Assembly: GCA_012295275.1 (NCBI GenBank)
Contig: CM022679.1
Span: 13,392,001 to 13,456,000 of the forward strand
Direction of reading: 5' to 3'
DNA: 64,000 nt
Source: Chrysomallon squamiferum
Lineage: Eukaryota; Animalia; Mollusca
Made by a program: the position numbers and the translations under genes. Below are positions 4,805-34,376 of this stretch, piece after piece; the stretch's first letter is position 1; every line of letters begins with the position of its first letter. The notes beneath the pieces were generated by a model. It worked only from the letters and a program-made list of their open reading frames with translations, did not search any database and had not been told where the DNA came from.

Positions 4805-5422
<618 letters not shown>

Positions 5423-7805: not shown

Positions 7806-7851
<46 letters not shown>

Positions 7852-7930
7852 GTAGTAGTTACATATGAGATGTATACATTTTTCTGTTTACCGTAACGTC
7901 ATTTTGTAGACCTACAGGAAATGGAGAATT

Positions 7931-7932
<2 letters not shown>

Positions 7933-8018
<86 letters not shown>
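7933..8018. repeat. (GA)n microsatellite, representative of many (GA)n, (TA)n, (TG)n, (AAT)n and (ATAC)n tracts in the window
   Basis: Seen directly. The paralogous tract at ~21839-21882 is shorter. Confidence 0.95.
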
Positions 8019-8021
<3 letters not shown>

Positions 8022-8728: not shown

Positions 8729-8916
8729 ATGAAGGGAGGTAGTTTGTTTTTCGTTTTTCTCCTCATCTTTTCGATGGACAGTGTTAAAGGAGTGGGTAAG
8801 TACACTAATCTGACATCTAGACGTTTTAATATTAGCATAATTACACAAGCGTACAGTAATAGCGTTTTTTTTAATCTGTGTGCTCTATCAACATGTATTA
8901 TTTGTAATAAAATATG

Positions 8917-8980
<64 letters not shown>

Positions 8981-9379
8981 ATAGATTTAAAACAAATATT
9001 TTACTCATCCATTACCTTATTAATATCTACAACACAAATAACACAGCAATTATACGGCTGTGATATTATAATTTAAAAATATTCCAAAACTACTATTCGC
9101 TACATTACAAATTAGTTAATAAAAATTAGTAACACTTATCTGTCTGCACTCTGATTGTTTTACAATGAAATATGACATTAAAAAAACAACAACAATGATT
9201 TAAAAACTGAACAAATTTTTTAACAGGAACTAAATAAAAAAAATATATATATGAAAAGCTTAATAATAAAAATGTATATTTAATAATAGTAATAATAGAT
9301 ACATACTTACAACATACATACACATATATACATACGTACTTTGTAACCCATATAAATACATATATTCATACATATATGC

Positions 9380-9411
<32 letters not shown>

Positions 9412-9412
9412 G

Positions 9413-9444
<32 letters not shown>

Positions 9445-12400
9445 AACACACACATGTAGTATGCGTAGACAGACAGACAAACAAACAAACAAACAGACAG
9501 ACAGACAGATAGATAGATAGATAGACAGACAGACACAAATAACATGCATACACGTATACATATACATATAAATATACACTAATAAAGACAAAAACATGCA
9601 TACACACGTACAGACATACGCACATATAAAAATGTACATTCATACACAGACACCGCTTTTCATTTTCGTATATAAATTTCAGACAACTTAGAAACTATTA
9701 TTAAAATAACAGTAAGTTATGCTGTATTATTTATTTATTTATTCACTGATTCATTGATTTATTCATTTATTCATTTATTCATTATTAATATTTGTTTATT
9801 ATTATAAATGTTTTTTTTTTTTTTTTTTTGTGCAGATGTCCTATTTCCTTCAGGAGTCACCTTGTCATCGGTAGATTCAGAAATCATCCAGGATAACGAT
9901 CCCCGATACGCTGACCCTCTGAATACAGGTTGGGATTATATCATATTTGTTGTAGACACGGAAACCATCATGGTTCTGTCCTAACCACATCGTATGTTAC
10001 CAGTCATCAGAAGCATCATGGGAAGAATTCTGTATCTTAGTCGGTGATATTTTTGGCTATCATACTTTATGTGTGGCACACATTATGTATCTATTTCTAT
10101 AACTAAGAAAGGATTTTATTTAATTTCAGATCGACAATAAAATGTTTACATTAATTTGCTTTCAATATATAAGCTTAATTTGCTTATATATGTGCAATTC
10201 ATATATATATATATATATATAATTTGCTTATATATATATATTTAAAGAGAGAGAAAGAAGACAATGCAAATTCTTACTTCGTTGCTAATATCGCGTTCCA
10301 ATCAATTTAATAAAATTATATAAATAAAAAAGAGGATTTTATTTTTTTATTTTTTTATTTTTTTTGTTTCCAGGTACTTACATATTTGATTCCAAGGGTA
10401 TCGAAATGGACAGACTGGCTCTAACTGTTCTTGTCAGTCATTTCAAGTCAGAGAACGAACGATACTTCCGAGCTCATCCGGTTCTAATTAAATGTGCTGA
10501 CAAAGTCATGTTGGACCTTGGAAACCAAGGCAAGCAGGTAAATACAACAGGAATGGATGCTTATAAACCACTGCGGTTTTTACAAAACAGGAATTCTACA
10601 GTTTACGCTTACAAAAATCACTGAAACTGATACAAGACTGTAATGGTTATAACAATATAATGAAACACTCTTTATTTCTCCAAAAACCATTTTTTATCAT
10701 TTAGTTACTTATTTTTCAATTACATTTTTTTGTTTTATTTACTGCAGCAGTATTTATCCTTAACTCATTTTATTCACTTACTAATCGAGATTTTTTACTT
10801 GTTTAAAAAAGCCCAAGAAAGCCTCTTTCTTTTTCCCACTTACCAGTCAGGATTTGCGACTTGTCTAGGTAACAAAACACTTCAAAATTTCAGATAAGAA
10901 TTTTCAGCGGTTACATCCCAAGGTCGGAGATAGGTTCCAGCAAAACTGTTCAGGATCTTTATGCTGCGGCTGGATGTGCAGTTCAGTTGATGTTTCGACC
11001 TGAAGTCGTCGGAGATGTACTTTTAATTGCCCAGGCAGCACTTAAACACTGTCCGCTCATTTTTGAGGTAACTGACAATATTTAACACACAGTTAATCAT
11101 TAATTTGGCGATTAATATCCACTTATTTTTTTAATCATCAGACGTTTTGTTACTGTTTGTACTTTAATTGTTATTAACTGCATTGTGAAAAAAGTGTTTA
11201 CGTCATTAACGAATAAATGAGACGTTAAATGTTCAACTGTTTTTACTTTAATTGTCATTAATTGTATTGTGAAAAAAATGTTTACGTCATTAGCGAATAA
11301 ATGAATTTTATTATCACAGCCTGGGGGTTTCCTGGGCCCAAGGACCTATGCAATACATGTGTGATGTGGCTTGCTCTCGATAAATTAATCGTTGTTGTAA
11401 ATATTGGGTGCATTGTTTTGTCCCAGGACCTATATTGATATTAGACGGCCGTAACTGACGTTAGTTCATAATACATACTGAGCTTTAATGTTATTTTATT
11501 TCACAGAGATTTCAGCGCGACCTCGGTCTCGTTCTGATGGTAGATCGTCTGCACATTCATATGACTGAAGCAGGCGGAAATGGAATGTATCTAGGTATTG
11601 ATGGATACTCATGGAATCAAGTAGACACATTCGAAAACTGGTCTTTACAGCAAATTGACATCGGCTTAGGTAAATGTTAGAATTTGATATATATCCTGGA
11701 TTTGATACTTAATAAAGCTGCATGTCCATTTGCAGTGTTTTATATATATGCCATAGTAATGTTGGTAGTCGTAATTATATTATTCATTCATTCATTCATT
11801 TGTTCGTTTTTATTTTATTTGCGTTATTATTATTTTTTAAATTACGGTGGGATTCCTTTCATTCATTTGTTTATGCGTTTATTGCGAAAATATATACTGT
11901 TTTCTAAACTTAGCAATTTTATCTTTAATATTATTTGTATTTAATATCTTTCTTTCTTTCTATTTATTTATTGTTGTTATTATTATTATTATTATTATTT
12001 ATTTATTTATTATTATTATTATTACTATTATTATTTATATATTTATTTATTTATTTTATTATATTTATATACATACATACATATATATATATATTTTTTT
12101 TTTTTCATTAATGACCAAACAGAATATATTTTTTCATTACAGATTCTAATAAAGTGGACACATGTTCTTCGTTCGTGGGACTCGAGGCGGGTAGTGTTTA
12201 CCCACCAGGCAGTGCGTCCTCCCCCGAAGCAGTCGTGGGCAGGGTTGATGAACCCATCACACGAGATAACCCCGAAGATTTTAGTCTGTAAATTAATATT
12301 TTTAAAAAACAACATCAACATCATTTTATCATTCTTTTAAGTTGTTTATTTCTATTAGCTGCACAATGTATTAAGATCAGGATATTTTGTTTAGAAAACT

Positions 12401-12472
12401 ACAGAGACGCTTTTGTAATTATAAATAAGTGTTTGTAACGGAGATAAAAGCAAAAAGTCATAACGGGTAGAA

Positions 12473-12522
<50 letters not shown>

Positions 12523-13841
12523 TTATTGCACTTAAAGAAATAAAATTACTTCTCCTATCCTTTGTGTCGTGTAATTTAAATATATTTACTTAACAACAAT
12601 GCAAATTATGTAGGCATGTTAACTGTAGCTGAAATAATGTATATTGTTTTCAGAACAAATTTATTAATATGTTATTTCTTACAGTATGGTCCAGTATGTT
12701 GGGCGAGATATTGAATTTGAAAATGAAGAACGAACCTCGTCATGGTGTGGACTAGAAGGTAACCCATGTCATGACTGCAGAAGTCAGCCGAACGGAAGTC
12801 AGCCGAACGTAACAGGCGTTTAGATTTTTTATTTTTTATTTATTTATTTATTTTTGGTTGGTTTTTAATTGTATTTATTTATTTATTATTTATTTATTGT
12901 TTGTTTATTTATATATATATATATATATTTTTTTTAAGACGCCATTTTCACTGTTTTTATTTTGTTTGTTTTGTTTTGTTTGTTTTCTTTTTTGTTTTGT
13001 TTTATCAATCTGTATAAACAGATCTATATTGTTTTGTCCTTTTTTGGTTTTGGTTTTTCTGTTAAATACATGCAGGTTATATTCACCACATAACGATGAC
13101 TATTATAATGTTTTCTAAAATCCAGGAATCTATAATAACGTCAAACAAATTCAAATTTACAGGCAATACTTGTAATAAAATGATTTTTTATTTTAGCAGT
13201 ACATACCGAAGTACCATTGATTTTAATTTAAATCTTATAATAAACTGCAGTATGTTAACAGAACACATTAACCAATGCTATTTTGTATTCAGTTTAAAAA
13301 AAAAAAAAAGTTTATGCTTTTCACGTATGTAGCTCATAATATACAAGTTATTATTAGTCAGGGGACCTTCACACTGATGTTTAGAATTTCAATATACGAC
13401 GGAGAATAAAACAAAATAATAATAATATAAAATAAATACATAAATAAATATATAAATAATAATAATAATAACAACAACAACAACAACAACAACAATAATA
13501 ATAATAATAAAAGTATAATATTATAAAACGACATGTAAGTTACTGTTTGAAATGTAATTAGCATGCATTTACCCAGAATATGATTCTTTAGCTAATTTAA
13601 TAACGTGAAATACATTCTTGTGAGTGTAGGGTGTGTGACTAATGGGAGGTTACCGCATGTAGTTCTCTGTGCACCGCCCATTTCGAAATTCACTTGAAGC
13701 TGTTATCCGCTACTGCCAGTTCTCAAAAGGCCTTGATATGTTGTTGTTTTTTAATACCTAAGAGAAAATGCATTTAAAATTTTAATCTGTGTCAAATGCA
13801 TTAATCATGATCCCTGTTCCCTGTATCACAGTTATTTAAAA

Positions 13842-13880
<39 letters not shown>

Positions 13881-14568
13881 AAGAAAAGATAAATAACAAA
13901 CAAACAGACATGCATACAATTTCTAAATTTAATGGGTAACATTATAACATTTTCAGGTATGCTAAGCAATAATCATTCATTAATTTAGGTGCGCTGCAAG
14001 ACTGTTCAGTCCGAGGATGTTTGTATTAATCAGCAAACTTCAAAAGCTTGTCAGACACAACCTCAGTCGTAAGTTATTTGAATATATAATTATAGTGTGT
14101 TAAAAAAGATATAGTAACAGATGTAACACACACACACACACACACACATTAAAAAAGATATAGTAACAGATGTAATATATATACAGACACACACACACAC
14201 ACAAACACACAGACAGATATATCTGTGGGTGTCTTATCTATATCAGAGTGTAAGTCCATGCTTGCTGGCGTCTTTTAAAAGGATATATTAGAACTAAAAC
14301 AGATTCAAGATAATTTCTGTTAATATGAAATTAATCACATTTGGTATTCTTATATGGAATAATTATCTTCATGTTCATCGTCATTATCATCACCATCTTA
14401 AAACAATTATCCTTATAATCCTAAATATATTTTATGAATGATCTCATAATAATTTATTAACTTACCTATTTATTAAAATTAATTATTGTAATAAATGAAA
14501 GAGTTGCTATAAATATCCTTTTTAATCATACTTTATATCGTCAAAAGTATCACGAATAAAAAGGTTTG

Positions 14569-14604
<36 letters not shown>

Positions 14605-17600
14605 TATTTATTTGATTAGTTAATTAGAAATGTTGATAATTATAATTAATTAGAACTGTTGATAATTACGTAGAGAAAATGAAGGTAATTTACTCGTTTG
14701 ACGAACCACGGGAAGGACATATGCCAGATTCCGCGTCACTTCGAACTGAAGGTCGGCTGGTCAAACTGGAGCTTAGCAGCAGCAACACCGTAGACAACGT
14801 CAAAATTCTGAGTAAGCTGGCTCTTTGTGCCGATGCAGATTACGTCAGAAATGAAGGTGAGTGTAATTTTAAAGTAAATGTCTATAATAATACAGTCAAA
14901 ACTCCGTTAACCGAACATCAATTTTCCAAACAAAATTTTAAGGTCCATAGATAACATATGCATTGAATTCAGTTTATATATTTATTTATTTATTTATTTA
15001 TTTATAATAATATTGTTTATTTTTTCCCGTAGATGTATGTTACTGAATATGCATTTCATTCTTTAATTAAATAGGTTTACATTCACGGAAGATGTAAGTT
15101 GTCTGTTAGGTATAAGTATGTTTGTTGAAATCTAAGCTGTCTCTCTGTGATAGTGTTAGTAAAAAGAAAGAATGGTTATCTGTACAAGATAATGTAAGTG
15201 TTTTATTTAGAAGACAGAGAGGTTTTAAAAAATAGTGTTAGTGTGTTAGAATGTTAGCGAGAGGTCAATGCAGTGGTCTTACACCATCCCAGTTAGCTCT
15301 GTTATTATTATTGTTGTTGTTGTTGTCGTTATTGTTTTTGTTTTATTATTATTATTGATGTATGTATAAATGTATATAAATTAGGATTTATTGTATATGA
15401 ATATCATCATTCTCCTGCTTTAACATACTTAATTACAAATAATTTGTTGTAAATTAAGGTACCAGCATTCTGGTAGCAGTAAGAAAAGCCTGTTCGAAAT
15501 GTTTGAAACTGGAGTATCCTAAATCTTCTGTGTTGATCGTTTTACCCCCGTTCTCAAAAAACAACATCTACAAATTACCTTTATACATGGAGGAAAAGAA
15601 AACACCTCTCATCGACCCGGATGGACAGGTAAATACACAGGTGTGGATACCAGACCACAAGTGAATGTTTAGTGTGAGAGATTTTGAAATAAAAAAACTG
15701 AATTTCCAAAAGTTGATATTAAACTGGCTTTAATAAATCATTGTGAAAAAAAAAAAAAAAAAAGTTATGAACAAGTTAATTCGTAATCAATAAATAGAAA
15801 TTAAACACCTTATTTATATGAGCCATAACTTTTGAAAAAATAAGTAATTATCGATAAAAGTAATGATCGCTATTGTTGCTGACATTAGGTTCGTTGTAGT
15901 AGTAACAGTAGCAGCGTCAGCTGTATTATTAATATATTTTTATAATATATATTAATTAAATAAATATACTGAAACAAATCCAGATGCGTTCGTTTTCAAA
16001 GAGAGATACCCATTCTTCTCATGTTTTTTTATTATTGTATTTGTCCCTTTTCTGAAGGAAGATCTAGAGATTGCCGAGGATGCTACACTGGGGATGTTTA
16101 AATCAAAAGATTCTGTTTATCGATACATGCGGCTTCATGCAAGAATAGCCATGTGTTATTCCGCAGTGTTCAACAAACTGAACAAATGGAAAAACGAAGA
16201 AGGTAAGAATTAGAAATATTACAGTTTTTTTCGCGTGTTTACAGTATGGGATCATAGTCTTCAGGTTCTCGGGATAGGTTTGGCAGTTTTGTTTAATGGT
16301 GTCTACGAATATTTAAATGTTGCCTGGTTATGAGCTTATTACTTATCAAACCAACTGTTTTATACATACCACACAAACATATATACACAATCATACATAT
16401 GTACATACATACAAACATATACACACACATACAGACATACATGTATTCATTCATCCATGCATTTATTTATTCATACATACATACATACATACTTACATAT
16501 ATACATACATACATATATCGTGTTGTTTTATTTATTTTTATTTAATGTTATGTTTATTATTTATTTTATTTTATTTGCTAGTGAAAATCTGTATTTTTGC
16601 CATTCAGTCAGATACCTTTAAGGATAGAACGATAGCCAGCACATTGTAGTCATTTTCTGCTGCTTTGTTTGACAAGAATATTTACAAACAGATTTAATAT
16701 GCCTTCTACCCTTACAGACAAAGTTAAGATTGAAATCGTCAACGCGTACATGACCAACCAAGAACAAGCACTGAAAATAGATCCGATGGATCAGCGTTAT
16801 AACAAGTTTTCTAGTGGTACTGGCTTCGAAATGAAATTTTTGGTGTCAGACCTGAATTCCACGACGATCGTCAAAGATTCGTTGCTGTTATTGCTGCTTA
16901 CGGTTGTGGATATGTGTGGACCATTGTTCCACGATTCTTCAAACTCTTTAGGAGCCGGGCTTTACAAAGACAAGGTTTTCGTTTGTCTGCAAGACACGTT
17001 TGATTTCTGGACGGACGATAAGAATCTGATACCAGATGGCTTGAGCCTTGATTCGTTCAGGGAAAAGATGAACAAAAGATTTGTTCTGGCTTCACGTAAG
17101 TGTGTAAAAATATTTAGTGCATTCGATTAATTAAAATGTTGAGTTATTGATTAATACAGTTTAATGTCAGAGATTAATACCCTTTTAAGTTCCGAATATG
17201 AAAACGCTTACAAATATCATCTTCCAAAAACTAATGAATTAACAATTAAAACGATATATGTGTTTGTGGGAGTCTGTACCAGTGCAAGCATGCAAACGCA
17301 TTGTATACGTTTTATTGCGAACGTGTGTATGCATATTTACGTATTTCAAATGCATGCATGTATATCATACAGGGATGTATGTGCGAATACATGCATGCAT
17401 AAACATAGAGATAGATATCTTTATCATTAATACTTTATCATTGATATTTACAGAAAATCGACTGGTTGACCCAGATAATCTTGAAATAGCTTGCAATAAT
17501 GCAGACCCTCCCGCTCTTCAGTCAGTTGATTTCAGTCACGTGCATTCCCCCGGTGCGGTGTCAAGCCCTAACACGTGTCCCCTCTAGTGAAAGCCAGTTC

Positions 17601-19353
17601 TGCAAAGACACCGAGGCGATCAGACGCATGCACATCAAAGTGATGTTAAAAGAACTGGATCGCAAATGGTTATATCATGAGAGAAAGGAGTTCCTAAACC
17701 CTCTGGAGAAGTGTTTCTTGACGTGCGGAACGTGCATGGATGGTACGTTTTAGTTAACAGTCGCTGTTGGTGTTGTTGCTATTAATACTTATATTTAACA
17801 TGCTGAACATGCGTGGGTGGAACGTTTTGGGTAACGTCACAGCTGGTGTCGGTGTTGTTGCTATTAATACTTATATTTAACATCCTGAACTAATGCACAC
17901 ATACACATTAAACTAAGAAATATTTATTTATTTATTTATTTATTTATTTATTTCCTTTTTTTTTTTTTTTTTTTAAATGCCGGAACTTATATTTTATTTT
18001 TATTATTATTTCTTGTCAGTGGACTACTGAAATGTGAAGGACATGGGCTTCTGGAAGGTAATTAGTTCAATTTTGTTTTATTTAATATTTCAGGATTTAT
18101 TTGGGAAGACAAGACAGAAAGCTGCAACAACTTTATGCACTGGGCTCCTTTTGAACGAGAACGAAATCTCAAATATCTTTCCCAGACACAACGCCAATCT
18201 CCGCAGACTTGCCAGTCAGCATGGGCACACAAAGACAGTCCATTGTTTCATCTTATTTGTACGTGTAGTTTATTATATGTTATTGTGTCAGTGACAGCAA
18301 CAGCACAGTATAAATAGTCAGTGATTAGTGAGGAGTATTGTAGTCTAGCTAATCGTGTCACTGGGGATTTTCTATTATGAGCAACTCATTAGGACAGATG
18401 ACCCTCTTTAAAAATTTTGTATCAATAATATCTAGGGTTACCGTAGTTTCATCAACCAAAGACAGTACAAAAGGAATCTATATTTACTATGACGGTCCCA
18501 GATCTATCTACACGTTTTTATTTATTCCTCCTTCCAAGTCAAGTTTAAAAACGCTATAACATACCCTCGCTCAAGAACGATCTTGCAACCCCCAGGTTGA
18601 AAACCCTATAAACTAGAAAATTAAAATCAAAGTGAAGATAAAAACAAAATATTTTCATTTAGTCTGATATTAATTTGTTTCTTTCTTAAACACAGTGGCA
18701 CCCGTGTACCATTTAAAAAGTTGCGGGCGATTCTCAATACACAGTTCAGCCTCAACAGTTTCATGTTTTGAATTTCTACTCTCTCTCTTTCTTCTTTTTT
18801 TTTTTGTTTTTATCATTCACAGTCAACACAGTCGGAGCTACATACAGACCTAACCCAATGGAGTGTGTTCAGGAGGATCTCTACTTGCAGTGAAACAACC
18901 CAAGTCCTGCTCTCAAGTTACTCCTGTTATTTTGTATTCACGCCGCTGGGTCAAAGATGAAACAGACATGGTTTCTCTGTATAAAGCTTATAAGGTATCT
19001 CTCTCTCTCTCTCTCTTTGAGGAAATGTAAACTTGATGACAAGTTTATCAAAGACTGTGATATCTACTTTTCTGATAATAGGAAGGTGTATATTATGGAT
19101 CATTTCAGCTAGGCTGAAACAAATATCTTATAACAAGAATATTTTGTCTTCTTTTTAACTACAGATATTATGACATGTATTTGAATTAAAAATAAGTGAC
19201 GTGTTCCATTAAAATTAATATTTATTCCAAAAAAAAAACAATGATAGTTTTTAGTAATTTGTTACGTGGTGTAACAAAAATGTCACTGATGTCGTAAATG
19301 GACTGGTCAGCAAACCCATTTATAGCTGAAAGCACTGCTCACAGATTGCCATT
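8729..19353 (+). pseudogene. Truncated, decaying copy of the Hedge/M15-domain gene (exons 1-16; exon 17 absent)
   Basis: Exons at 8729-8795, 9836-9928, 10374-10537, 10894-11067, 11507-11669, 12143-12287, 12685-~12808, 13989-14068, 14674-14856, 15459-15628, 16058-16202, 16718-17095, 17454-17742, 18094-18258, 18823-18993 and ~19261-19353. Lesions versus copy 2: exon-7 donor lost; 2-nt deletion at ~17574; 8-nt and net 4-nt deletions in exon 14; TCA>TGA at 18891; exon-16 acceptor deleted. Confidence 0.9.
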
Positions 19354-19594
19354 GAAAGAGTGCCAAGTCCTGAGCAGTCTCGCGGACCAATCTCTGGAAT
19401 GGCAACTTTATGATCAGCAATTCTGTAGATTTCTGATACCATCTGATTTCTCTCATAGTACCACGCCTGTAACGATGGAGTTTCTTCACTCTTCTAGTAG
19501 ATGGTGCATTCTTTCTTGCTGCCTTTGTTGCCAGTTGCTTCCGTGGAGCTTTACCTCCAGTAGATTTACGTGCAGTCTGCTTAGTACGAGCCAT
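19307..19594 (-). pseudogene. 3'-truncated H3.3 duplicate with an open chimeric ORF (95 aa)
   Basis: H3 residues 1-77 with S28N, G33R, G34R, P38L, P43R, VAL46-48>M, R53W, R63I and I74T, followed by [19 protein letters not shown] read from the junction and antisense exon 16. Most of the histone fold is missing. Confidence 0.85.
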
Positions 19595-20695
19595 AATTCA
19601 ACTTGTCCTGTATCATTATTTAAAAAAAAAAAAAAAATTAGTTTCTATCTTGGCATATGATGTGAACAATTTATGTAACAATCATCTGGTTTTACTTTAG
19701 CAAGTTGTAAATAAACTTGAAACAGATGAAACCATAAAATGCTAGTTGGATATCTTCCCAATACTAAATATGTATAAATACAGGGGTACATGGAATACCA
19801 TAGCATATATATTAAACAAAAATATTTATCTAGCAACAGACGAAATTATATAATTTAGCTGATGTACTTTCTTCCCTTAAGTTGGTTTCAGGTATCGTAG
19901 ATAAGTAATATTCCGTATTCAGAGCAAGAGTGAGATTGGCAACAGCTATTGCACAATACAGTCGATACAATTTACTCCTAAGATCCAAAAACAGTAACCT
20001 AAATCGTAACTTTAAATGGATTTTATATGTTATTTCAACGGATTTTCTTGCATTTAGTAATGTAAACTCTAGGATACTTGTATAGTTACTAATAAAGCCA
20101 ATCCGTAAAGTTAATGCTAACAACTGCCTAATTTTCTTTACAATCTGGAAAATTGGAATTCACATTAATAACATTACACGAAACTATCTTAAGAAATTAC
20201 GTTTTTAGTCTAAAAGTTACAAAAATACTTCACATTACGTACAAGATTTAAGTGTGACGTACCAAGAGTTCGACTGTCAATAACGATCAGTGAAACACCG
20301 TCATATATTGCTTACAATTTATGTTTACATACACCGATACGTGTAAAATCATTATTGGATATATAACTACGCAGACGTTTACAAACTTATGTTAACTTAT
20401 TTCAACTTGAAAAGATTTATATTTCTGTTACATAGATTTATACATCGACACTTAAAAATGTTCCGGTAACAATGGCGCCTTTCTCAAGTCTTCCGTCACC
20501 CATACATACACCGACTCATATTCAAAAATATATCGATCCGTGTGAAATAACATATAATTCTAATGTTACTTTATAGTTTTATATCGTTGATTTAGAACAT
20601 TTAACTCAGTATTAGGTTTTGGAATTAGGTTAACTCACCTTCTAGAGTTTAACAATTTCAAAATTTACCGCAAAAATCGCAACGAACTATGGTAT

Positions 20696-20745
20696 GGTAT
20701 AGAAAAGTCTTTTTACGTGCCCACGTCCAATTCAAGGTTCGTATA
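20696..20745 (-). mobile_element. ~49-bp insertion in the duplicated H3.3 promoter, probably a 5'-truncated retroposon 3' end
   Basis: Absent from copy 1 (ggtatatttag at 6551). Positions 20708-20741 are the exact reverse complement of 20956-20989. Confidence 0.5.
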
Positions 20746-20947
20746 TTTAGCTCGGTGGTTTAGTTTTTGTTTCATTGGTTTTGGTTTTGAGAAAGTGATC
20801 TGAGCTGATTGGTTACAATCTCTGTGATTGTATTGGTCCATTTCTATAAAGTACATGAAGTGATTGGACAAAAATACTCTGTTTTCATTGGTCAATTCTC
20901 AATTTCTTTAGCAAAGTGCTTCTTTACTGTATTCCCTGGCCTCTACT

Positions 20948-21006
20948 TTAGTGCCCGAACCTTGAATTGGACGTGGGCACGTAAAAAGAGTTCTCCATCC
21001 ATCCAT
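20948..21006 (+). mobile_element. 59-bp insertion with (CCAT)n tail and 13-bp target-site duplication; SINE/LINE-like 3' fragment
   Basis: cctggcctctact is duplicated at 20935-20947 and 21007-21019 but single in copy 1 (~6745). The insert ends in ccatccatccat. Confidence 0.6.
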
Positions 21007-21703
21007 CCTGGCCTCTACTATGCTGGGAGAGAGATTGCAAAAATAGATTTCTGATTTCGGGTTCGCTCGATAAATTCCGTAGCCAATCCCGTAGTAATGA
21101 AAAGTTCGCAAGGGCAGATAACTTAAATATGATGACATAAGAATTAAAAATAACTGTTTACTAATAAGCTTATTGCGAAATATAACATTCACAGAGGTAA
21201 TGTAGTGTATACAGAACTTGTCTCATTAATAAACAACTTTCTGTTGTTCAGACTTTAAAAAGATTATCATAAAAACATTAAAAATGTACGTCATGTTTTG
21301 AACATTAAAACTGAAAGTTTAAAAATAATAAATAAATAAATAAATAAATGTAAAGATGTAAATAAAAGTGGCCTATACAGTAATCTGAATAAGGGAAACT
21401 CGGTGAAAGTGTGGCAGAGAATAAAAGGAATTCGATTTTGTGACAATAAAACCGCTAACGATATATTAAATGTAATGACTGTAGCAGTTCCGATTGGGGA
21501 AAGTTAACGAACTAAAGCAGCGTTATTGTTTTAAATACTATTGTAAAATGTTAAAAACATATGGCAGTGCGATTGTCTCCATCTTGTCACAAAAAATCCG
21601 TGTTACGAGCGACATTCCAATACGCAGTCGCTAGCTGGCGCAACGAACAACAGAACATAATAGTTCCATCCTCTAAATCACAATACGATATGAAATAACA
21701 ATA

Positions 21704-21755
<52 letters not shown>

Positions 21756-21835
21756 TCATATAAGAGATGTATACGTGGAGACATTTTCTCTTTACCGTGA
21801 CGTCATTTTGTAGACCTACAGGAAATGGAGAATTC

Positions 21836-21885
<50 letters not shown>

Positions 21886-22625
21886 TATGACAAATCATTT
21901 ATTTATTAAATATTCACAGGTGTTAAAGAAAATAACCATATCGGTGATAACTTACTTTTCACTGATTGTTATTGACTGTAAGAGAAATTAATTTTAAAAA
22001 CTCTTTTCATTTTAATTATTTACTTTTTTTCACATTATTGTTTGTTATTAGTAGTAGTAGTATTACTACTGCTACACTTCTACATATGTTATTATTGTAT
22101 TTCAGAATGATTTTATTGTTGTTATTGTAGCTTTGCTGTTGTTATTGTCATTGTTGTTGGTGTTATCATTGCATCTGCGTTAATTACATAAAGAACCTCA
22201 ATTTTTCTTTATTTATTTAGTTATTTGTTTATTTATTTATTTTATTTATATTTTTATTGCTGGTAGTGCGTACGTGTGACAAAATTTTGACGTAAACATG
22301 ACCAGTAAAATTAATTTCTTGTACATAAACATAAAGTACGCAAAACAAATTTACTACATTTGTGAATGTCTCAGAATTACTCATTCTTTGTTTTCTAAAT
22401 AACAAGTTTCGACCTGCCGTTTATTTACGTCTGATTGCCTCAGTATCTGACGGACCGTAACTGACCGTTCATTATAAGTTCATTCTTATTCTTCTGATCC
22501 TTTGTACAGTTATATAGATCTCATGTTAACGTATACCTTTACTCAAGGTCCGGACAGGTCCGGTTATGCATGATTAAGTCTATATAGCTGGACATCGTCC
22601 ATTTTGTACACAGTAACTGAACAAA

Positions 22626-22818
22626 ATGAAGGGAGGTAGTTTGTTTTTCGTTTTCCTCCTCATCTTTTCGATGAACAGTGTTAAAGGAGTGGGTAAGTAC
22701 ACTAATCTGACATCTAGACGTTTTAATATTAGCATAATTACACAAACATATAGTAATAGCGTTTTTTTTTTTTTAATCTGTGTGCTCTATCAACATGTAT
22801 TATTTGTAATAAAATATG

Positions 22819-22882
<64 letters not shown>

Positions 22883-23292
22883 ATAGATTTAAAACAAATA
22901 CTTTACTCATCCATTACCTTATTAACATCTACAACACAAATAACACAGCAATTATACGGCTGTGACATTAGAATTTAAAAATATCCCAAAACTACTATTC
23001 GCTACATTACAAATTAGTTAATAAAAATTAGTAACACTTATCTGTCTGCACTCTGATTGTTTTACAGTGAAATATGACATTAAAAAAAACAACAACAATG
23101 ATTTAAAAACTGAACAAATTTTTTAACAGGAACTAAATAAAAAATATATATATATGAAAAGCTTAATAATAAAAATGTATATTTAATAATAGTAATAATA
23201 GATACATAATACAACATACATACACATACGTACGTTGTAACCCATATACACGTATATTCATACATACATGCATACATATATGCATATCTATA

Positions 23293-23325
<33 letters not shown>

Positions 23326-26149
23326 ATATATACACACACACACACAAACACACACATGTATTATGCGTAGACAGACAGACAAACAAACATACAAACAGAC
23401 AGACAGATAGATAGATAGATAGACAAACACAAATAACATGCATACACGTATACATATACATATAAATATACACTAATAAAGACAAAAACATGCATTCACA
23501 CGTACAGACATACACACATATAAAAATGTACATTCGTACACAGACACCGCTTTTCATTTTCGTATATAAATTTCAGACACCTTAGAAACTATTATTAAAA
23601 TAACATGTAGTTATGCTTTATTATTTATTTATTTATTCATTGATTCATTGATTTATTGATTTATTGATTTATTCATTATTATTATTTGTTTATTATTATA
23701 AATGTTTGTGTTTTTTTTTTTTTGTGTGCAGATGTCCTATTTCCTTCAGGAGTCACCTTGTCATCAGTAGATTCAGAAATCATCCAGGATAACGATCCCC
23801 GATACGCTGACCCTCTGAATACAGGTTGGAATTATATCATATTATGATTCTGTCCTAACCACATCGTATGTTACCAGTCATCAGAAGCATCATGGGTAGA
23901 ATTCTGTATCTTAGTCGGTGATATTTTTGGCTATCATACTTTATGTGTGGCACTTATCATATATCTATTTCTATAACTAAGAAAGGATTTTACCTCATTT
24001 CAGATCGACAATAAAATGTTTACATTAATTTGCTGTCAATATATAAGTTTAATTTGCTTATGAAAAGTTATTGTATGGAATAATTATTACATCCACTTTA
24101 ACATTTTTTTACTTCGTAAATAAAATAATTATTGATTTTATATATATATATATATATTTTAAAGAGAGAGAGAGAAGACAATGAACATTCTTATTTCGTT
24201 TCTAATTTCGCGTTCCGATCAATTTAAAAAACACTATATAAATAAAAAAGAGGAGTAATTTCTTTTTTTTTTTTTTTTTTTTTTTGGGTTTCCAGGAACT
24301 TACATATTTGATTCCAAGGGTATCGAAATGGACAGATTGGCTCTAACTGTTCTTGTCAGTCATTTCAAGGCACAGAACGAACGATACTTCCGAGCTCATC
24401 CAGTTCTAATTAAATGTGCTGACAAAATCATGTTGGATCTTGGAAACCAAGACAAACAGGTAAATACAACAGGAATGGATGCTTATAAACCACTGCGGTT
24501 TATACAAAACAGGAATTCTACAATTTACGCTTACAAAAATCACTGAAACTGATACAAGACTGTAATGGAGCATACAACATAATCAAACACTCTTTATTTC
24601 TCCAAAGACACTTTTTTTTATCATTCAGATATTTATTTTTCAATTACATTTTTTTTTTTTTTACTGCAGCAGTATTTATCCTTAACTCGTTTTATTCACT
24701 TACTAATCGAGATTTTTTACTTGTTTAAAAAAGCCCAAGAAAGCCTCTTTCTTTTTCCCACTTACCAGTCAGGATTTGCGACTTGTCTAGGTAACAAAAC
24801 ACTTCAAAATTTCAGATAAGAATTTTCAGCGGTTACATCCCAAGGTCGGAGATAGGTTCCAGCAAAACTGTTCAGGATCTTTATGCTGCGGCTGGATGTG
24901 CAGTTCAGTTGATGTTTCGACCTGAAGTCGTCGGAGATGTACTTTTAATTGCCCAGGCAGCACTTAAACACTGTCCGCTCATTTTTGAGGTAACTGACAA
25001 AAAAAAATAAAAAAATACTATGCCTTTGTTTTGCCACGCTATTGTTGTAATAGGCAACATTATTATCAGTTTATATGTAAAACCTAATAGATGCTTTTAA
25101 TTATCAGTGCTTAATATTTAACACACGTTTAATCATTAATTTGGCGATTAATATCCACTTATTTTTTTAATCATCAGACGTTGAATGTTGAACTGTTTTT
25201 ACTTTAATTGTCATTAATTGTATTGTGAAAAAAAGTGTTTACGTCATTAACGAATAAATGAGACGTTAAATGTTCAACTGTTTTTACTTTAATTGTCATT
25301 AATTGTATTGTGAAAAAAAGTGCTTACGTCATTAGCGAATAAATGAATTTTATTATCACAGCCTGGGGGTTTCCTGGGCCCAGGGACCTATGCAATACAT
25401 GTGTGATGTGGCTTGCTCTCGATAAATTAATCGTTGTTGTAAATATTGGGTGCATTGTTTTGTCCAAGGACCTATATTGATATTAGATGGCCGTAACTGA
25501 CGTTAGTTCATAATACATACTGAGCTTTAATGTTATTTTATTTCACAGAGATTTCAGCGCGACCTCGGTCTCGTTCTGATGGTAGATCGTCTGCACATTC
25601 ATATGACTGAAGCAGGCGGAAATGGAATGTATCTAGGTATTGATGGATACTCATGGAATCAAGTAGACACATTCGAAAACTGGTCTTTACAGCAAATTGA
25701 CATCGGCTTAGGTAAATGTTAGAATTTGATATATATCCTGGATTTGATACTTAATAAAGCTGCATGTCCATTTGCAGTGTTTTATATATATGCCATAGTA
25801 ATGTTGGTAGTCGTAATTATATTATTCATTCATTCATTCATTTGTTCGTTTTTATTTTATTTGCGTTATTATTATTTTTTAAATTAAAGTGGGATTCCTC
25901 TCAATCATTTGTTTATGCGTTTATTTCGAAAATATATACTGTTTTCTAAACTTAGCAATTTTATCTTTAATATTATTTGTATTTAATATCTTTCTTTCTT
26001 TCTATTTATTTATTGTTGCTGTTATTATTATTATTTATTTATTTATTATTATTATTATTACTATTATTATTTATAATTATTTATTTATTTATTTTATTAT
26101 ATTTATATACATACATACATATATATATATTCAGATATATATATTCACA

Positions 26150-26180
<31 letters not shown>

Positions 26181-26983
26181 TTTTCATTAATGACCAAACA
26201 GAATATATTTTTTCATTACAGATTCTAATAAAGTGGACACATGTTCTTCGTTCGTGGGACTCGAGGTGGGTGGTGTTTACCCACCAGGCAGCGCGTCCTC
26301 CCCCGAAGCAGTCGTGGGCAGGGTTGATGAACCCATCACACGAAATAACCCCGAAGATTTTAGTCTGTAAATTACTATTTTAAAAACAACATCAACATCA
26401 TTTTATCATTCTTTTAAGTTGTTTATTTCTATTAGCTGCACAATGTATTAAGATCAGAATATTTTGTTTAGAAAACTACAGAGACGCTTTTGTAATTATA
26501 AATAAGTTTTTGTAACGGAGATAAAAGCAAAAAGTCATAACTGGTAGAATAATGTGTGCGTGCGTGCGTTTGTGTGCGCGTGTGTGTGTGTGTAAATTTA
26601 TTGCACTTAAAGAAATAAAATTACGTCTCCTATCCTTTGTGTCGTGTAATTTAAATATGTTTACTTAACAACAATGCAAATTATGAGGGCATGCTAGCTG
26701 TAACTGAATTAATGCATACTGTTTTCAGAACAAATTTATTAATATATTATTTCTTACAGTCTGGTCCAGTATGTTGGGCGAGATATTGAATTTGAAAATG
26801 AAGAACGAACCTCGTCATGGTGTGGACTAGAAGGTAACCCATGTCATGACTGCAGAAGTCAGCCGAACGGAAATTCACTGACTAAAAGGTAATGTAACAA
26901 GCGTTTAGATTTTTTATTTTTTATTTATTTATTTATTTTTGGTTGGTTTTTAATTGTATTTATTTATTTATTGTTTGTTTGTT

Positions 26984-27027
<44 letters not shown>

Positions 27028-27545
27028 GACGCCATTTTCACTGTTTTTTATTTTTTTTTGTTTTTTTTTTTTTTTTTTTCTTTTTTGTTTTGTTTTATCA
27101 ATCTGTATAAACAGATCTATATTGTTTTGTCCTTTTTGGTTTTGGTTTTTCTGTTAAATACATGCAGGTTATATTCACCACATAACGATGACTATTATAA
27201 TGTTTTCTAAAATCCAGGAATCTATAATAACGTCAAACAAATTCAAATTTACAGGCAATACTTGTAATAAAATGATTTTTTATTTTAGCAGTACATACCG
27301 AAGTACCATTGATTTTAATTTAAATCTTATAATAAACTGCAGTATGTTAACAGAACACATTAACCAATGCTATTTTGTATTCAGTTTAAAAAAAAAAAAA
27401 GTTTATGCTTATCACGTATGTAGCTCATAATATGCAAGTTATTATTAGTCAGGGGACCTTCACACTGATGTTTAGAATTTCAATATACGACGGAGAATAA
27501 AACAAAATAATAATAATATAAAATAAATACATAAATAAATATATA

Positions 27546-27589
<44 letters not shown>

Positions 27590-27605
27590 TAACAATAACA
27601 ATAAA

Positions 27606-27636
<31 letters not shown>

Positions 27637-27951
27637 GTATAATATTATAAAACGACATGTAAGTTACTGTTTGAAATGTAATTAGAATATGATTCTTTAG
27701 CTAATTTAATAACGTGAAATACATTCTTGTGAGTGTAGGGTGTGTGACTAATGGGAGGTTACCGCATGTAGTTCTCTGTGCACCGCCCATTTCGAAATTC
27801 ATTCGAAGCTATTATCCGTTAATGCCAGTTCTCAAAAGGCCTTGATATGTTGTTGTTTTTTTATTACCTAAGTGAAAATGCATTTAAAATTTTAATCTGT
27901 ATCAAATGCATTAATCATGATCCCTGTTCACTGTATCACAGTTATTTAAAA

Positions 27952-27982
<31 letters not shown>

Positions 27983-28418
27983 AAAATAAAATAAAAATAA
28001 AATAAATAAATATATAAATAAATAAAGAAAAGAAAAGATAAATAACAAACAAACAGACATGCATACAATTTCTAAATTTAATGGGTAACATTATAACATT
28101 TTCAGGTATGCTAAGCAAACTTTAATAATCATTCATTAATTTAGGTGCGCTGCACGACTGTTCAGTCCGAGGATGTTTGTATTAATCAGAAAACTTCAAA
28201 AGCTTGTCAGACACAACCTCAGTCGTAAGTTATTTGAATATATAATTATAGTGTGTTAAAAAAGATATAGTAACAGATGTAATATATATATATATATATA
28301 TATATATACTTACCTAGTTATTAAAATTAATTATTGTAATATGAGAAAGAGTTGCTATAAATATCCTTTTATCATACTTTATATCGTCAAAAGTATCATG
28401 AGTAAAAAAGTATGTTTG

Positions 28419-28453
<35 letters not shown>

Positions 28454-28457
28454 CATC

Positions 28458-28488
<31 letters not shown>

Positions 28489-31400
28489 GATTAGTTATTT
28501 AGAAATGTTGATAATTATAATTAATTAGAACTGTTGATAATTACGTAGAGAAAATGAAGGTAATTTACTCGTTTGACGAACCACGGGAAGGACATATGCC
28601 AGATTCCGCGTCACTTCGAACTGAAGGTCGGCTGGTCAAACTGGAGCTTAGCAGCAGCAACACCGTAGACAACGTCAAAATTCTGAGTAAGCTGGCTCTT
28701 TGTGCCGATGCAGATTACGTCAGAAATGAAGGTGAGTGTAATTTTAAAGTAAATGTCTATAATAATACAATCAAAACTCGGTTAACCGAACATCAATTTT
28801 CCAAACAAAATTTTAAGGTCCATAGATAACATATGCATTGAATTCAGTTTATATATTTATTTATTTATTTATTTATAATAATATTGTTTATTTTTTCCCG
28901 TAGATGTATGTTACTGAATATGCATTTCATTCTTTAATTAAATAGGTTTACATTCATGGAAGATATAAGTTATCTGTTAGGTATAAGTACGTTTGTTGAA
29001 ATCTAAGCTGTCTGTCTATGATAGTGTTAGTAAAAACAAAGAATAGTTATATGTACAAGATACTGTAAGTGTTTTATTTAGAAGACAGAGAGGTTGTAAA
29101 AAATAGTGTTAGTATGTTAGAATGTTAGCGAGAGGTCAATGCAGTGGTCTTACACCATCCCAGTTAGCTCTGTTATTATTATTATTGTTGTTGTTCTCGT
29201 TATTGTTATTGTTTTATTATTATTATTAATGTATGTATAAATGTATATAAATTAGGATTTATTGTATATGAATATCATCATTCTCCTGCTTTAACATACT
29301 TAATTACAAATAATTTGTTGTAAATTAAGGTACCAGCATTCTGGTAGCAGTAAGAAAAGCCTGTTTGAAATGTTTGAAACTGGAGTATCCTAAATCTTCT
29401 GTGTTGATCGTTTTACCCCCGTTCTCAAAAAACAACATCTACAAATTACCTTTATACATGGAGGAAAAGAAAACACCTCTCATCGACCCGGATGGACAGG
29501 TAAATACACAGGTGTGGATACCAGACCACAAGTGAATGTTTAGTGTGAGAGATTTTGAAATAAAAAACTGAATTTCCAAAAGTTGATATAAACTGGCTTT
29601 AATAAATCATTGTGAAAAAAAAACAACAAAAAAAACAAAACAAATGTTATGAACAAGTTAATTCGTAATCAATAAATAGAAATTAAACACCTTATTTATA
29701 TGAGCCATAACTTTTGAAAAAATAAGTAATTATCGATAAAAGTAATGATTAGGTTCGTTGTAGTAGTAACAGTAGCAGCGTCAGCTGTATTATTAATATA
29801 TTTTTATAATATATATTAATTAAATAAATATACTGAAACAAATCCAGATGCGTTCGTTTTCAAAGAGAGATACCCATTCGTATCATGTTATTTTTATTAT
29901 TGTATTTGTTCCTTTTCTGAAGGAAGATCTAGAGATTGCCGAGGATGCTACACTGGGGATGTTTAAATCAAAAGATTCTGTTTATCGATACATGCGGCTT
30001 CATGCAAGAATAGCCATGTGTTATTCCGCAGTGTTCAACAAACTGAACAAATGGAAAAACGAAGAAGGTAAGAATTAGAAATATTACACTTTGTTCGCGT
30101 GTTTACAGTATGTTATCATAGTCTTCAGGTTCTCGGGATAGGTTTGGCAGTTTTGTTTAATGGTGTCTAAGAATATTTAAATGTTGCCTGGTTATGAGCT
30201 TATTACTTATCAAACCAACTGTTTTATACATACCACACATACATATATACACAATCATACATATGAACATATATACATACATATACTAACACATACAAAC
30301 ATACATACACATACAGACATATATGTATTCATTCATCCATGCATTCATTCATTCATACATACATACATACATACATACTTACATATATACATACATACAT
30401 ATATCGTGTTGTTTTATTTATTTTTATTTAATGTTATGTTTATTATTTATTTTATTTTATTTGCTAGTGATGATGAAAGAGAAAATCTGTATTTTTGCTA
30501 ATCAGTCAGATACCTTTAAGGATAGAACGATAGCCAGCACATTGTAGTCATTTTCTGCTTTTTTGTTTGACAAGAATATTTACAAACAGATTTAATATGC
30601 CTTCTACCCTTACAGACAAAGTTAAGATTGAAATCGTCAACGCGTACATGACCAACCAAGAACAAGCACTGAAAATAGATCCGATGGATCAGCGTTATAA
30701 CAAGTTTTCTAGTGGTACTGGCTTCGAAATGAAATTTTTGGTGTCAGACCTGAATTCCACGACGATCGTCAAAGATTCGTTGCTGTTATTGCTGCTTACG
30801 GTTGTGGATATGTGTGGACCATTGTTCCACGATTCTTCAAACTCTATAGGAGCCGGGCTTTACAAAGACAAGGTTTTCGTTTGTCTACAAGACACGTTTG
30901 ATTTCTGGACGGACGATAAGAATCTGATACCAGATGGCTTGAGCCTTGATTTGTTCAGGGAAAAGATGAACAAAAGATTTGTTCTGGCTTCACGTAAGTG
31001 TGTAAAAATATTTAGTGCATTCGATTAATTGCGTTATTAATTAATACAGTTTAATGTCAGAGATTAATACCCTTTTAAGTTCCGAATAAGAATAATATTC
31101 AAAGCTGAAAACCCTTATAAATATCATTTTCCAAAAACTAATGAATTGACAATTAAAACGATATATGTGTGTTGTGGGAGTCTGCACCAGTGAAAGCATG
31201 CAAACGCATTGCATACGTTTTTATTGCAAACGTGTGTATGCATATTTACGTATTTCAAATGCATGCATGTATATCATACAGGGATGTATGTGCGAATACA
31301 TGCATGCATAAACATAGAGATAGATATCTTTATCATTAATACTTTATCATTGATATTTACAGAAAATCGACTGGTTGACCCAGATAATCTTGAAATAGCT

Positions 31401-31854
31401 TGCAATAATGCAGACCCTCCCGCTCTTCAGTCAGTTGATTTCAGTCACGTGCATTCCCCCGGTGCGGTGTCAAGCCCTAACACATGTGTCCCCTCTAGTG
31501 AAAGCCAGTTCTGCAAAGACACCGAGGCGATCAGACGCATGCACATCAAAGTGATGTTAAAAGAACTGGATCGCAAATGGTTATATCATGAGAGAAAGGA
31601 GTTCCTAAACTCTCTGGAGAAGTGTTTCTTGACGTGCGGAACGTGCATGGATGGTACGTTTTAGTTAACAGTCGCTGTTGGTGTTGTTGCTATTAATACT
31701 TATATTTAACATGCTGAACATGCATGGATGGAACGTTTTGGATAACAGTCAGTGTTGCAAATATTATTATCAATACTTATATGTACTTGTTTGGACTATA
31801 CATCATTAGTGCACACATATAGATTAAAAAAATACTCATTAAACTAAGAAATAT

Positions 31855-31897
<43 letters not shown>

Positions 31898-32966
31898 TTT
31901 CCTTTTTTCTTTTTTTCTTTTTAAATGCTGGAAATAGATTCGTTACTTATATTTTATTTTCATTATTGTTATTTCTTGTCAGTGGACTACTAAAATGTAA
32001 AGGGCATGGACTTCTGGAAGGTAATTAATTTAATTTTTTTTTTTTTTTTTTTTTTTTTGATATTTCAGGATTTATTTGGGAAGACAAGACAGAAAGCTGC
32101 AACAACTTTATGCACTGGGCTCCTTTTGAACTTCTGAATGAGAACGAAATCTCAAATATCTTTCCCAGAGACAACGCCAATCTCCGCAGACTTGCCAGTC
32201 AGCATGGTCACACGATCGAGGACAGTCCATTGTTTCATCTTGTTTGTACGTGTAGTTTATTATGTGTTGTTGTGTCTGTGACAGACTCGAAGCAACAGCA
32301 CAGTACAAATAGTCAGCGATTAGTGAGAAGTATTGTAGTGTAGCTAATCGTGTCACTGGGGACGTTTTTTTTTTTTTTTTTTAATCTACGTTTGGAAAAT
32401 AAGAAAAACAAATGACATTTTCTCTAAATGAATGACATAGATATCTGGATAATAAGACTGTTTATATTCGCGTTGTGATAACGATAACAAAGACCGCAGT
32501 GTTTGCTGTAGTGATTTGTAAGATATTATTGTAACAAATAACTGCAACACTGGTTTTCAACCTTTTTCATACTGCGACCCCTTATGAGCAACTCAATAGG
32601 ACCGATGACCCCTTTAAAAATTTTATCAATAATATCTAGGGTTACCATAGTTTCATCAACCAAAGACAGTACAAAAGGAATCTATATTTACTGTGACGGG
32701 TCCCAAACATTACTGCACGTTTTTATTTATTCCTCCTTCACAGTCAAGTTGAAAAAAGCTAAATCCCCACAAAAAAGGCTGGCGACCCCCAGGTTGAAAA
32801 CCTATGAACTAGAATATTAAAATCAAAGTAAAGATAAAAACAAAATATTTTCATTTGATCTGATATTAAATTTTTCCTTCCTTACACACAGTGGCACCCG
32901 TGTACAATTTAAAAAGTTGCGGGCGATTCTCAATACACAGTTCAGCCTTAACAGTTTCACGTTTTG

Positions 32967-33028
<62 letters not shown>

Positions 33029-33311
33029 AAAAATTTATCATTCACAGTCAACACAGTCGGAGCTACATACAGACTCTCTCTCTCTCTCTCTCTTTTTTAT
33101 TTTTTTTTATCATTCACAGTCAACACAGTCGGAGCTACATACAGACCTAACCCAATGGAGAGTGTTCAGGAGGATCTCTATTCGCAGTCAAACAACCCGA
33201 GTCCTGTTCTCGAATTACTCCTGCAGTTGTTTTGTATTCACGCCGTTGGAACTGTTAATTTTTGGGTCAAAGATGAAACAGACGTGGTTTCTCTGTATAA
33301 AGCTTACAAGG

Positions 33312-33387
<76 letters not shown>

Positions 33388-34172
33388 AAGTCTATACAAG
33401 ACTGAAGACCTGTACGCAGCTTAGTGGTGGAGTCTAGGATTGAGGCACGATTGGTCGCCAGATCAATCCTCATCAGTACTCTCTTTGAAGAAATGTAAAC
33501 TTGATGACTAGTTTATCAAAGACTGTGATACGTACTTTTCTGATAACAGGAAGGTGTATATTATTGATCATTTCAGCTAGGCTGAAACGAGTATCTTATA
33601 ACAAGAATATTTGGTCTTCTTTTTAACCACAGATATTATGCCATGTATTTGTATTAAAAATATGTGGAGTGTTCCATTAAAAATAATATTTATTTATACA
33701 AAAAAAATACAAAACAATGTTGATAGTTTTTAGCAATTTGTTTTCAGGTTGTTATGTTGTATAACAAAAATGTCACTGATGTCCACACGTATGTCGTAAA
33801 TGAAGCCAGTCTTGAATCTGTTGAAGCGGTCATCGAAAACTTCGTAATGGACTGGTCAGCAAATTCGTGTCCGCTGTATACAAGAGAGTTTATAGCTGAA
33901 AGCACTGTTCACAGAGTGCCATTTGGTATGTAGTGTTTTATTATTAACTTACTACTACTACTACAGTTATTATTCTTGTTCTAATTGTTGTTGTTATTAT
34001 TATTGTTGAAATTTAAAAACATAATAGGAACTTCTTTCTTTATATTTGTATCAAATTAGGGAATATAGCATTTCACAATTGGAGGAATACTTTTTAATGG
34101 TATGCAATTTGAAATTGCAAGAGGAGCCTGTATTCGAATCAAAACAAAAAACCGACCAGCCTTTTCCAAATG

Positions 34173-34207
<35 letters not shown>

Positions 34208-34376
34208 CATAATTAAATGAAATTAAAACAAATTTGACATACTTCATAACATGAATTTCCTAATTAAATTTCTTTTTTTAGATATTGTAAAGCGATCTGA
34301 CCAATCGGCTGTTCGCGAGGACATCATCAACTACTACAACGGCTGGGAACATCGCTGGGTCAGCCAAGATTTGTAA
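22626..34376 (+). CDS. Uncharacterised 940-aa secreted protein: signal peptide, peptidase-M15-like domain, Hedgehog N-terminal (Hedge)-like domain, second M15-like domain, Cys-containing C-terminal region
   Basis: 17 exons, all GT-AG and phase-compatible, 2823 nt with no internal stop: 22626-22692, 23732-23824, 24296-24459, 24816-24989, 25549-25711, 26222-26366, 26760-26888, 28145-28224, 28549-28731, 29330-29499, 29923-30067, 30616-30993, 31363-31653, 32069-32245, 33120-33310, 33748-33925, 34282-34376. The N-terminus MKGGSLFFVFLLIFSMNSVKG is signal-peptide-like. Hedge motifs: GRVDEPITRN, DIEFENEE, AARLFSPR, SFDE, SLRTEGRLV, LSKLALCADADYV. Confidence 0.88.
32548..32806. mobile_element. hAT-type MITE in intron 14 (~259 bp); copy 1 keeps only the right part (~18377-18610)
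   Basis: Ends cactggttttcaacct / aggttgaaaacctatg (14/16 inverted match, resembling Charlie-type CAGTGGTTCTCAAC termini). Degenerate 8-bp flanks aactgcaa / aactagaa. Confidence 0.65.

Follow-up and report, generated by a model that had tools for sequence, protein, structure and literature searches.

How a Hedgehog signalling (Hedge) domain comes to lie in the middle of a protein predicted to be secreted, and what such a protein may do, is the question raised by a gene of the mollusc Chrysomallon squamiferum. The window analysed is a stretch of 64,000 nucleotides (GenBank assembly GCA_012295275.1, contig CM022679.1, positions 13,392,001 to 13,456,000 of the forward strand), to which all coordinates below refer. 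The gene occupies 22626..34376 on the plus strand and is the intact member, here called copy B, of a tandem pair. Judged by sequence comparison, copy B is a Hedglet, a member of a family that has been named and is almost unstudied, and its central domain (D2) is a true Hedge domain. D2 is flanked by two repeats, D1 and D3, which are homologous to each other and probably descend from peptidases of the LAS/M15A type.

The predicted model of copy B comprises 17 exons on the plus strand: 22626-22692, 23732-23824, 24296-24459, 24816-24989, 25549-25711 and 26222-26366 (exons 1-6), 26760-26888, 28145-28224, 28549-28731, 29330-29499, 29923-30067 and 30616-30993 (exons 7-12), and 31363-31653, 32069-32245, 33120-33310, 33748-33925 and 34282-34376 (exons 13-17). 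The spliced length of 2823 nt corresponds to 940 residues and a stop codon, internal stops are absent, and GT-AG boundaries were found at all 16 introns. The protein is collinear with an oyster ortholog, P0048 (326/929 identities, 35 %), and shares 278/712 identities (39 %) with P0022 from Tegillarca. It is on the collinearity with the ortholog that the exon junctions rest: 13 of the 16 are gap-free within about 5 residues against P0048, the remaining three showing 1, 4 and 1 gap columns. The spliced 17-exon, 940-residue protein proposed in the initial annotation is therefore borne out by the open frame, the intron boundaries and the oyster alignment. A putative exon at 25362-25410 was discarded as its inclusion broke the frame, and so was an exon 14 donor at 32249, the donor at 32245 restoring the frame. 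A probable signal peptide covers residues 1-21 (22626..22688, plus strand; hydropathy peak at residues 6-26, judged by eye); this signal-like stretch is the top hydropathy window of the protein, and an N-terminal hydrophobic stretch is present in all five orthologs. Hydrophobic windows at residues 554 and 816 were ruled out as membrane helices, the orthologs peaking at 1.0-1.4 outside the N-terminus, and hydropathy analysis gave no membrane helix in copy B or the orthologs. The Hedglet protein is predicted to be secreted.

D2 is encoded by exons 6-10 (residues ~231-409; 26251..29358, plus strand) and begins near residue 231, not directly after the signal peptide. Among 14 exons scanned singly, only exon 9 matched the Pfam HH_signal family, with an E-value of 0.002 that falls below the curated cut-off; P0022 matched the same family (E 5.4e-15) as well as Hedgehog chains in the PDB (about 1e-6). 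A profile built from 23 bacterial Hh domains, selected among 116 frames in which the zinc motif of Hh is present, aligned collinearly with residues 247-287 and 314-408 of copy B (39.5 bits). Between these two segments lies a Cys-rich insert (residues 285-312; 26806..26888, plus strand), placed in the calcium-site loop of Shh, whose long form is common to copy B and P0022 and which is short in oysters. HHalign gave the D2 profile 99.2 % with bacterial Hh, 35 % with M15A and no match to D1 or D3. Structural comparisons relied on an AlphaFold model of P0048, built from a 10-sequence alignment with a mean predicted local distance difference test (pLDDT) of 44. The D2 of this model matched Hedgehog N-domains in Foldseek (E 7e-7, target TM 0.65-0.76), and VIA-align superposed the model on Shh-N with Z 14.6 and a root-mean-square deviation (rmsd) of 2.7 over 139 aligned residues, spanning Shh 40-189. 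The internal Hedge domain seen in the initial annotation is thus supported both by profile matches and by the ortholog model, and of the domain searches it had proposed, those with Pfam and Shh-N succeeded for P0022 and the P0048 model, but exon 9 alone did not reach the cut-off.

D2 has diverged further than the domains of Hh and bacterial Hh. The Shh zinc ligands H141, D148 and H183 (PMC6027127) correspond to R362, K369 and L404 in copy B, the first zinc His being kept in P0022 and in all five fragments. Of the six Shh calcium ligands listed in PMC8052667, copy B keeps three, P0022 four, and the oysters one or two. No CGPG start was found in any of the six proteins, and no GCF motif in the copy B protein, the GCF of P0022 falling in its Cys-rich region; Pfam scans of all 10 alignment members detected no Hint, vWA or cadherin families. 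These motif, Pfam and hydropathy scans agree with the initial annotation, which had reported the lack of Hog, vWA/cadherin, CGPG start, GCF site and membrane anchor.

Compared with Hedgehog proper (Shh/Ihh/Dhh and Drosophila Hh; PF01085 plus Hog), copy B shares a probable signal peptide and, as judged from the ortholog model, the full Hedge fold, whereas its domain is internal and lacks the palmitoylation-type start, the cleavage site, Hint/Hog and the zinc ligands. The domain contains four introns and none at its end, where the Hh exon 2 donor is placed (PMC8052667). Hedgling of sponges, cnidarians and choanoflagellates, of which Nv 200640 was treated by Burglin 2008 (PMC2362128), likewise has Hedge without Hog and an incomplete peptidase motif; however, it has 3592 residues against 940 and its Hedge domain lies on one or two exons, while no vWA, cadherin, EGF or membrane segment was detected in Hedglet. 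The initial annotation had set copy B apart from both Hedgehog and Hedgling as a third kind, and this view stands, the third kind being Hedglet.

'Hedglets' were defined in lophotrochozoans, amphioxus and echinoderms by Jagers and Roelink (2021, PMC8052667), who predicted them to be non-catalytic, suggested descent from hh, called their distribution enigmatic and noted that every animal with a Hedglet also has hh. Their entries include XP_022317995.1 of C. virginica (residues 275-379), XP_009064322.1 of Lottia and XP_021349176.1 of Mizuhopecten, XP_022111291.1 of Acanthaster, and further entries from Branchiostoma. The first of these is our P0080, an ortholog of copy B along its full length, with identities of 39/143 in D1, 67/161 in D2, 60/156 in D3, and 55/150 and 54/125 in the C-terminal region; the published segment 275-379 agrees by eye with the P0080 alignment. 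In the published Hedglets the Hedge-like domain has the same internal position, with listed ranges beginning at residues 269-311, and the catalytic residues have similarly been lost. Contrary to what the initial annotation had supposed, the family was not an unrecognised one. Its proviso that the family might already have been described is largely borne out by the name, but in the available text the published comparison concerns a domain of ~105 residues alone, and neither architecture nor function is described, which differs in this respect from the present account of the D1/D3 repeats, the basic sites and the C-terminal region.

The literature search covered works outside subscription journals and most supplements; within it the term 'hedglet' occurred only in two versions of one work (PMC8052667 and bioRxiv), and neither flanking peptidase-like repeats nor functional data on Hedglets were found. 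An annelid pathway survey makes no mention of Hedglet-like genes in the text available (PMC9695228), PMC8166818 merely counts domains, and a search of the supplement of PMC6027127 gave no match. The full HMMER search that used exon 9 returned 57 matches, of which the 7 that matched as one long stretch were kept; the other 50, multi-stretch repeat proteins, were dropped, their scores coming in nearly all cases from query residues about 25-44, a stretch with a match to ubiquitin. Among the 7, two are long proteins: P0048 (925 residues), which belongs to a cluster that includes C. gigas LOC105335757, and P0022 (766 residues). P0048 and many cluster members are likely to be spliced transcripts, because their contigs, about 3 kb long, contain the 925-codon frame in full. 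Exons 12 and 9 yielded nothing in word-based protein searches and no usable lead in the ESM Atlas, and no relatives were found in metagenome or prokaryote contigs, a single plasmid match (E 0.4) having no M15 match. All named orthologs are bivalves; since the third, alignment-based protein search, whose alignment had scattered exon rows, gave only four oyster proteins, the range of the family outside bivalves rests on PMC8052667. Two Hedglet-cluster loci each are listed in C. virginica (P0080/P0083) and O. edulis (P0082/P0092), so that Hedglet duplicates or split haplotypes recur.

The flanking repeats are likely to be the addition made here to what was published on Hedglets, and they appear to resemble generic bacterial M15A peptidases and not Hedgehog. 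D1 comprises residues 56-200 (exons 3-5; 24301..25650, plus strand) and D3 residues 449-606 (exons 10-12; 29476..30920, plus strand), each being a likely degenerate fold of the LAS/M15A type. Profile comparison shows the two to be mutually homologous: HHalign gave 92.5 % (92-94 %) with an E-value of 4.9e-7 over 128 columns, a score attained by none of 60 block shuffles, and the Cys pairs C94/C161 of D1 and C489/C571 of D3 correspond. In the P0048 model, whose alignment included no peptidase, D1, D2 and D3 all follow the order helix-strand-strand-helix-strand-strand. The best match of the model D1 among 48,161 chains was the Streptomyces zinc DD-peptidase 1lbu (Z 7.5, rmsd 3.0, 98 aligned). For profile comparison, 31 usable M15A domains were obtained of 32 tried among 37 loci. 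Against these bacterial domains a joint D1+D3 profile scored 46 % in HHalign (E 2e-4), attained by 0 of 60 shuffles, and against bacterial Hh 0.6 %. When 3425 bacterial frames, including the 31 M15A and 25 bacterial Hh, were ranked, M15A took 6 of the top 25 places with D1, 10 with D3 and 13 with the joint profile, and none with reversed and C-terminal control profiles.

Several observations weigh against an M15A origin of the repeats. The M15A sequences are interrelated, which overstates the significance of their enrichment. D1 alone matched M15A at chance level in HHalign, where 19 of 60 shuffles attained its score and the reversed profile scored higher, and no individual M15A protein was a significant match (best E 0.52). 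A model of D3 alone (pLDDT 66) best matched nitroreductases (Z 6.3), ahead of 1lbu (5.6) and Shh (5.0), all of which lie below the noise level of 8 for this tool, and its top Foldseek row was VanXYc at an E-value of 0.09. The full-length model, for its part, is of low confidence and represents the oyster ortholog. On balance, the profile evidence for M15A likeness is moderate, and the modelled structures are suggestive for one repeat and inconclusive for the other; we consider LAS/M15A ancestry of D1 and D3 to be probable.

With the bacterial M15A/LAS peptidases (PF08291; 1lbu) D1 and D3 share the order of elements and traces of the motif, and with bacterial Hh copy B shares the strong match of D2. 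It differs from both in having three tandem folds in one animal protein and in lacking a complete H-x6-D plus H-x-H. The latter is incomplete in all 12 copies of D1 and D3, from which the M15A Arg is also missing, and a complete conventional zinc triad is present in none of the 18 domain copies (three domains in six proteins). No bacterial protein with the Hedglet layout was found among the loci examined. Of the 116 zinc-motif frames (L002-L121), many are not bacterial Hh and fall in a separate actinobacterial LAS-type family (Nocardioides, Kribbella). Two bacterial Hh-like frames, L068:2357-3202 and L118:157-624 (minus), carry an extra Cys near the domain end, and one of them has A-x-C-A-G-F-D-W-V, recalling a conserved Cys of Hedglet D2.

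Beyond D3 follows a C-terminal region (residues 632-905; 31365..33912, plus strand) with a conserved Cys-rich helical part and then a small alpha/beta part, for which no Pfam, PDB-sequence or clear fold match was obtained, the region not being folded alone. A polybasic furin-type motif present in all five orthologs is absent from the corresponding site of copy B (residues ~661-669; 31452..31478, plus strand). A dibasic KR at residues 913-914 (34290..34295, plus strand), before a short tail, is aligned with the RKR of four oyster orthologs and is a possible convertase site. Convertases may trim the protein at basic sites in most species. Hedglet proteins are acidic (net charge -10 to -26) and have many conserved Cys.

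As to function, we propose that Hedglet would be secreted, then trimmed by convertases in most species, and would bind glycopeptide polymers multivalently without cutting them, holding them in grooves that it inherited from cell-wall peptidases. Peptidoglycan-recognition proteins of the non-catalytic kind bind in this way without cutting. Because no domain has a complete zinc site, a non-catalytic binder of glycopeptide polymers, rather than an enzyme or a Hedgehog ligand, is a plausible reading, if one that falls short of probable. Bacterial peptidoglycan would be the first candidate ligand and matrix proteoglycan the second; that the ligand is peptidoglycan is a tentative possibility. Against the proposal it has to be said that the ligand is assigned purely by analogy, and that Drosophila Hh signals even without the zinc motif (PMC6027127). 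The same secreted, acidic and Cys-rich character, together with polybasic convertase sites in the orthologs and the many oyster-cluster contigs of full-length transcript size, would also suit a protein with a structural or scaffolding role in mucus, matrix or shell, in which dead folds act as protein-interaction modules with no glycopeptide recognition. The sequence has no low-complexity or repetitive matrix signature, however, and accession searches of main texts, supplements lying outside the search, gave no shell or mucus proteome paper, so we regard such a role as rather unlikely.

The initial annotation had also entertained a soluble decoy or modulator of the Hedgehog pathway, competing for Patched, Ihog/CDON/BOC or HHIP. 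What survives of this idea is that the modelled D2 retains the Shh-N fold in full, with the N-terminal part specific to Hh, that copy B retains the equivalents of E177 and H135 besides half of the calcium ligands, and that all Hedglet-bearing animals have hh (PMC8052667). It is weakened because all three zinc ligands and the other half of the calcium ligands are lost in D2: zinc, the binding route of HHIP, cannot be held, the lipidated N-terminal peptide described as mediating Ptch1 binding is absent (both PMC8052667), calcium ligands number from 1 to 4 of 6 across the six proteins with the Cys-rich insert in that very loop, and D2 is flanked on both sides. A decoy is accordingly improbable. 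A further reading is that the protein is an active metallopeptidase whose site is unconventional or composite, lying for instance in D3 (His plus Glu) or formed jointly by several domains. Such an enzyme would draw on the first zinc His of D3, kept in all five orthologs and thus in five of the six proteins, on a Glu at its second-ligand position in five of six, on the H-x-H of D1 in two of six (H182 and H184 in copy B, without H-x6-D) and on the first His of D2 already mentioned. Yet these residues vary by lineage, the D3 His is F535 in copy B and the third-ligand position is S, D or C, which makes catalysis highly improbable. Finally, copy B could be no working gene at all, being a mis-spliced model or a decaying duplicate: its neighbour is a pseudogene, and it differs from its orthologs in having lost the internal furin-type site and the D3 His. 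The frame is nevertheless open over 17 exons and collinear with the orthologs, the frame-breaking lesions seen sit in the neighbour, and the ratio of replacement to silent change per site (pN/pS) between the copies is about 0.46, so that this explanation is extremely improbable.

The neighbour, copy A (8729..19353, plus strand), is a tandem duplicate of exons 1-16 and a decayed upstream pseudogene, copy B being the intact one. Neither copy A nor the flanking repeats D1 and D3 had been noticed in the initial annotation. It arose within a 14-kb tandem duplication (5184..33783) in which 5184-19293 is repeated at 19365-33783, with 83-93 % identity per block. In copy A the end and donor of exon 7 are lost, exons 13-16 carry frameshifts, one nonsense codon is present and the copy ends inside exon 16, which at the duplication junction abuts a decayed histone H3 exon. 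Across the 846 codons compared between the copies, from which the above ratio derives, 15 differences are silent and 25 are replacements. Decay runs in opposite directions in the two blocks: the first has an intact histone H3 exon (5117-5422, minus) and the broken Hedglet, the second a degenerate H3 exon and the intact Hedglet. As the lesions are reciprocal between blocks, a haplotype artefact was ruled out. Divergence of the copies is uneven, exons 4, 5, 9 and 11 and their edges being identical and exon 15 having 11 mismatches and 3 deletions, a pattern that gene conversion might have caused if it spared the junction end.

The genes neighbouring the locus are ordinary ones. They encode a member of the CCSMST1 family (3042-3497), a sirtuin (41009-41323), a Methyltransf_16 methyltransferase (46435-46749), a DUF4605 protein (48903-49277) and a folliculin-interacting protein (FNIP; 60482-61597). 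Pfam gave nothing for a frame at 38694-39755 (minus), and a short tandem repeat at 61583-61943, with a period of about 140 bases and 82 % identity over 225 bases, lies where the FNIP-like exon ends.

How the Hedgehog signalling domain arose from peptidases of the bacterial cell wall is an open question, on which Hedglet may bear. Should D1 and D3 be generic M15A folds, an hh duplication could not by itself yield Hedglet. The positions of the introns might be taken as further evidence for an origin apart from hh; this evidence is weak because introns move. It is conceivable, if doubtful, that Hedglet is a separate lineage, at least pan-bilaterian, and not a drifted hedgehog copy, joining two M15A folds and one Hedgehog-type fold in one secreted chain as a trace of the step from peptidase to Hedge, and that it would act as a multivalent peptidoglycan sensor or trap in aquatic invertebrates. 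Counts of Hedge-domain genes miss the oyster Hedglets, because the oyster members escape Pfam entirely. If M15A-type folds do flank the Hedge domain, animals would hold M15A-type domains besides Hedge, and the family offers a concrete contrast between glycopeptide binding and activity in the Hh pathway.

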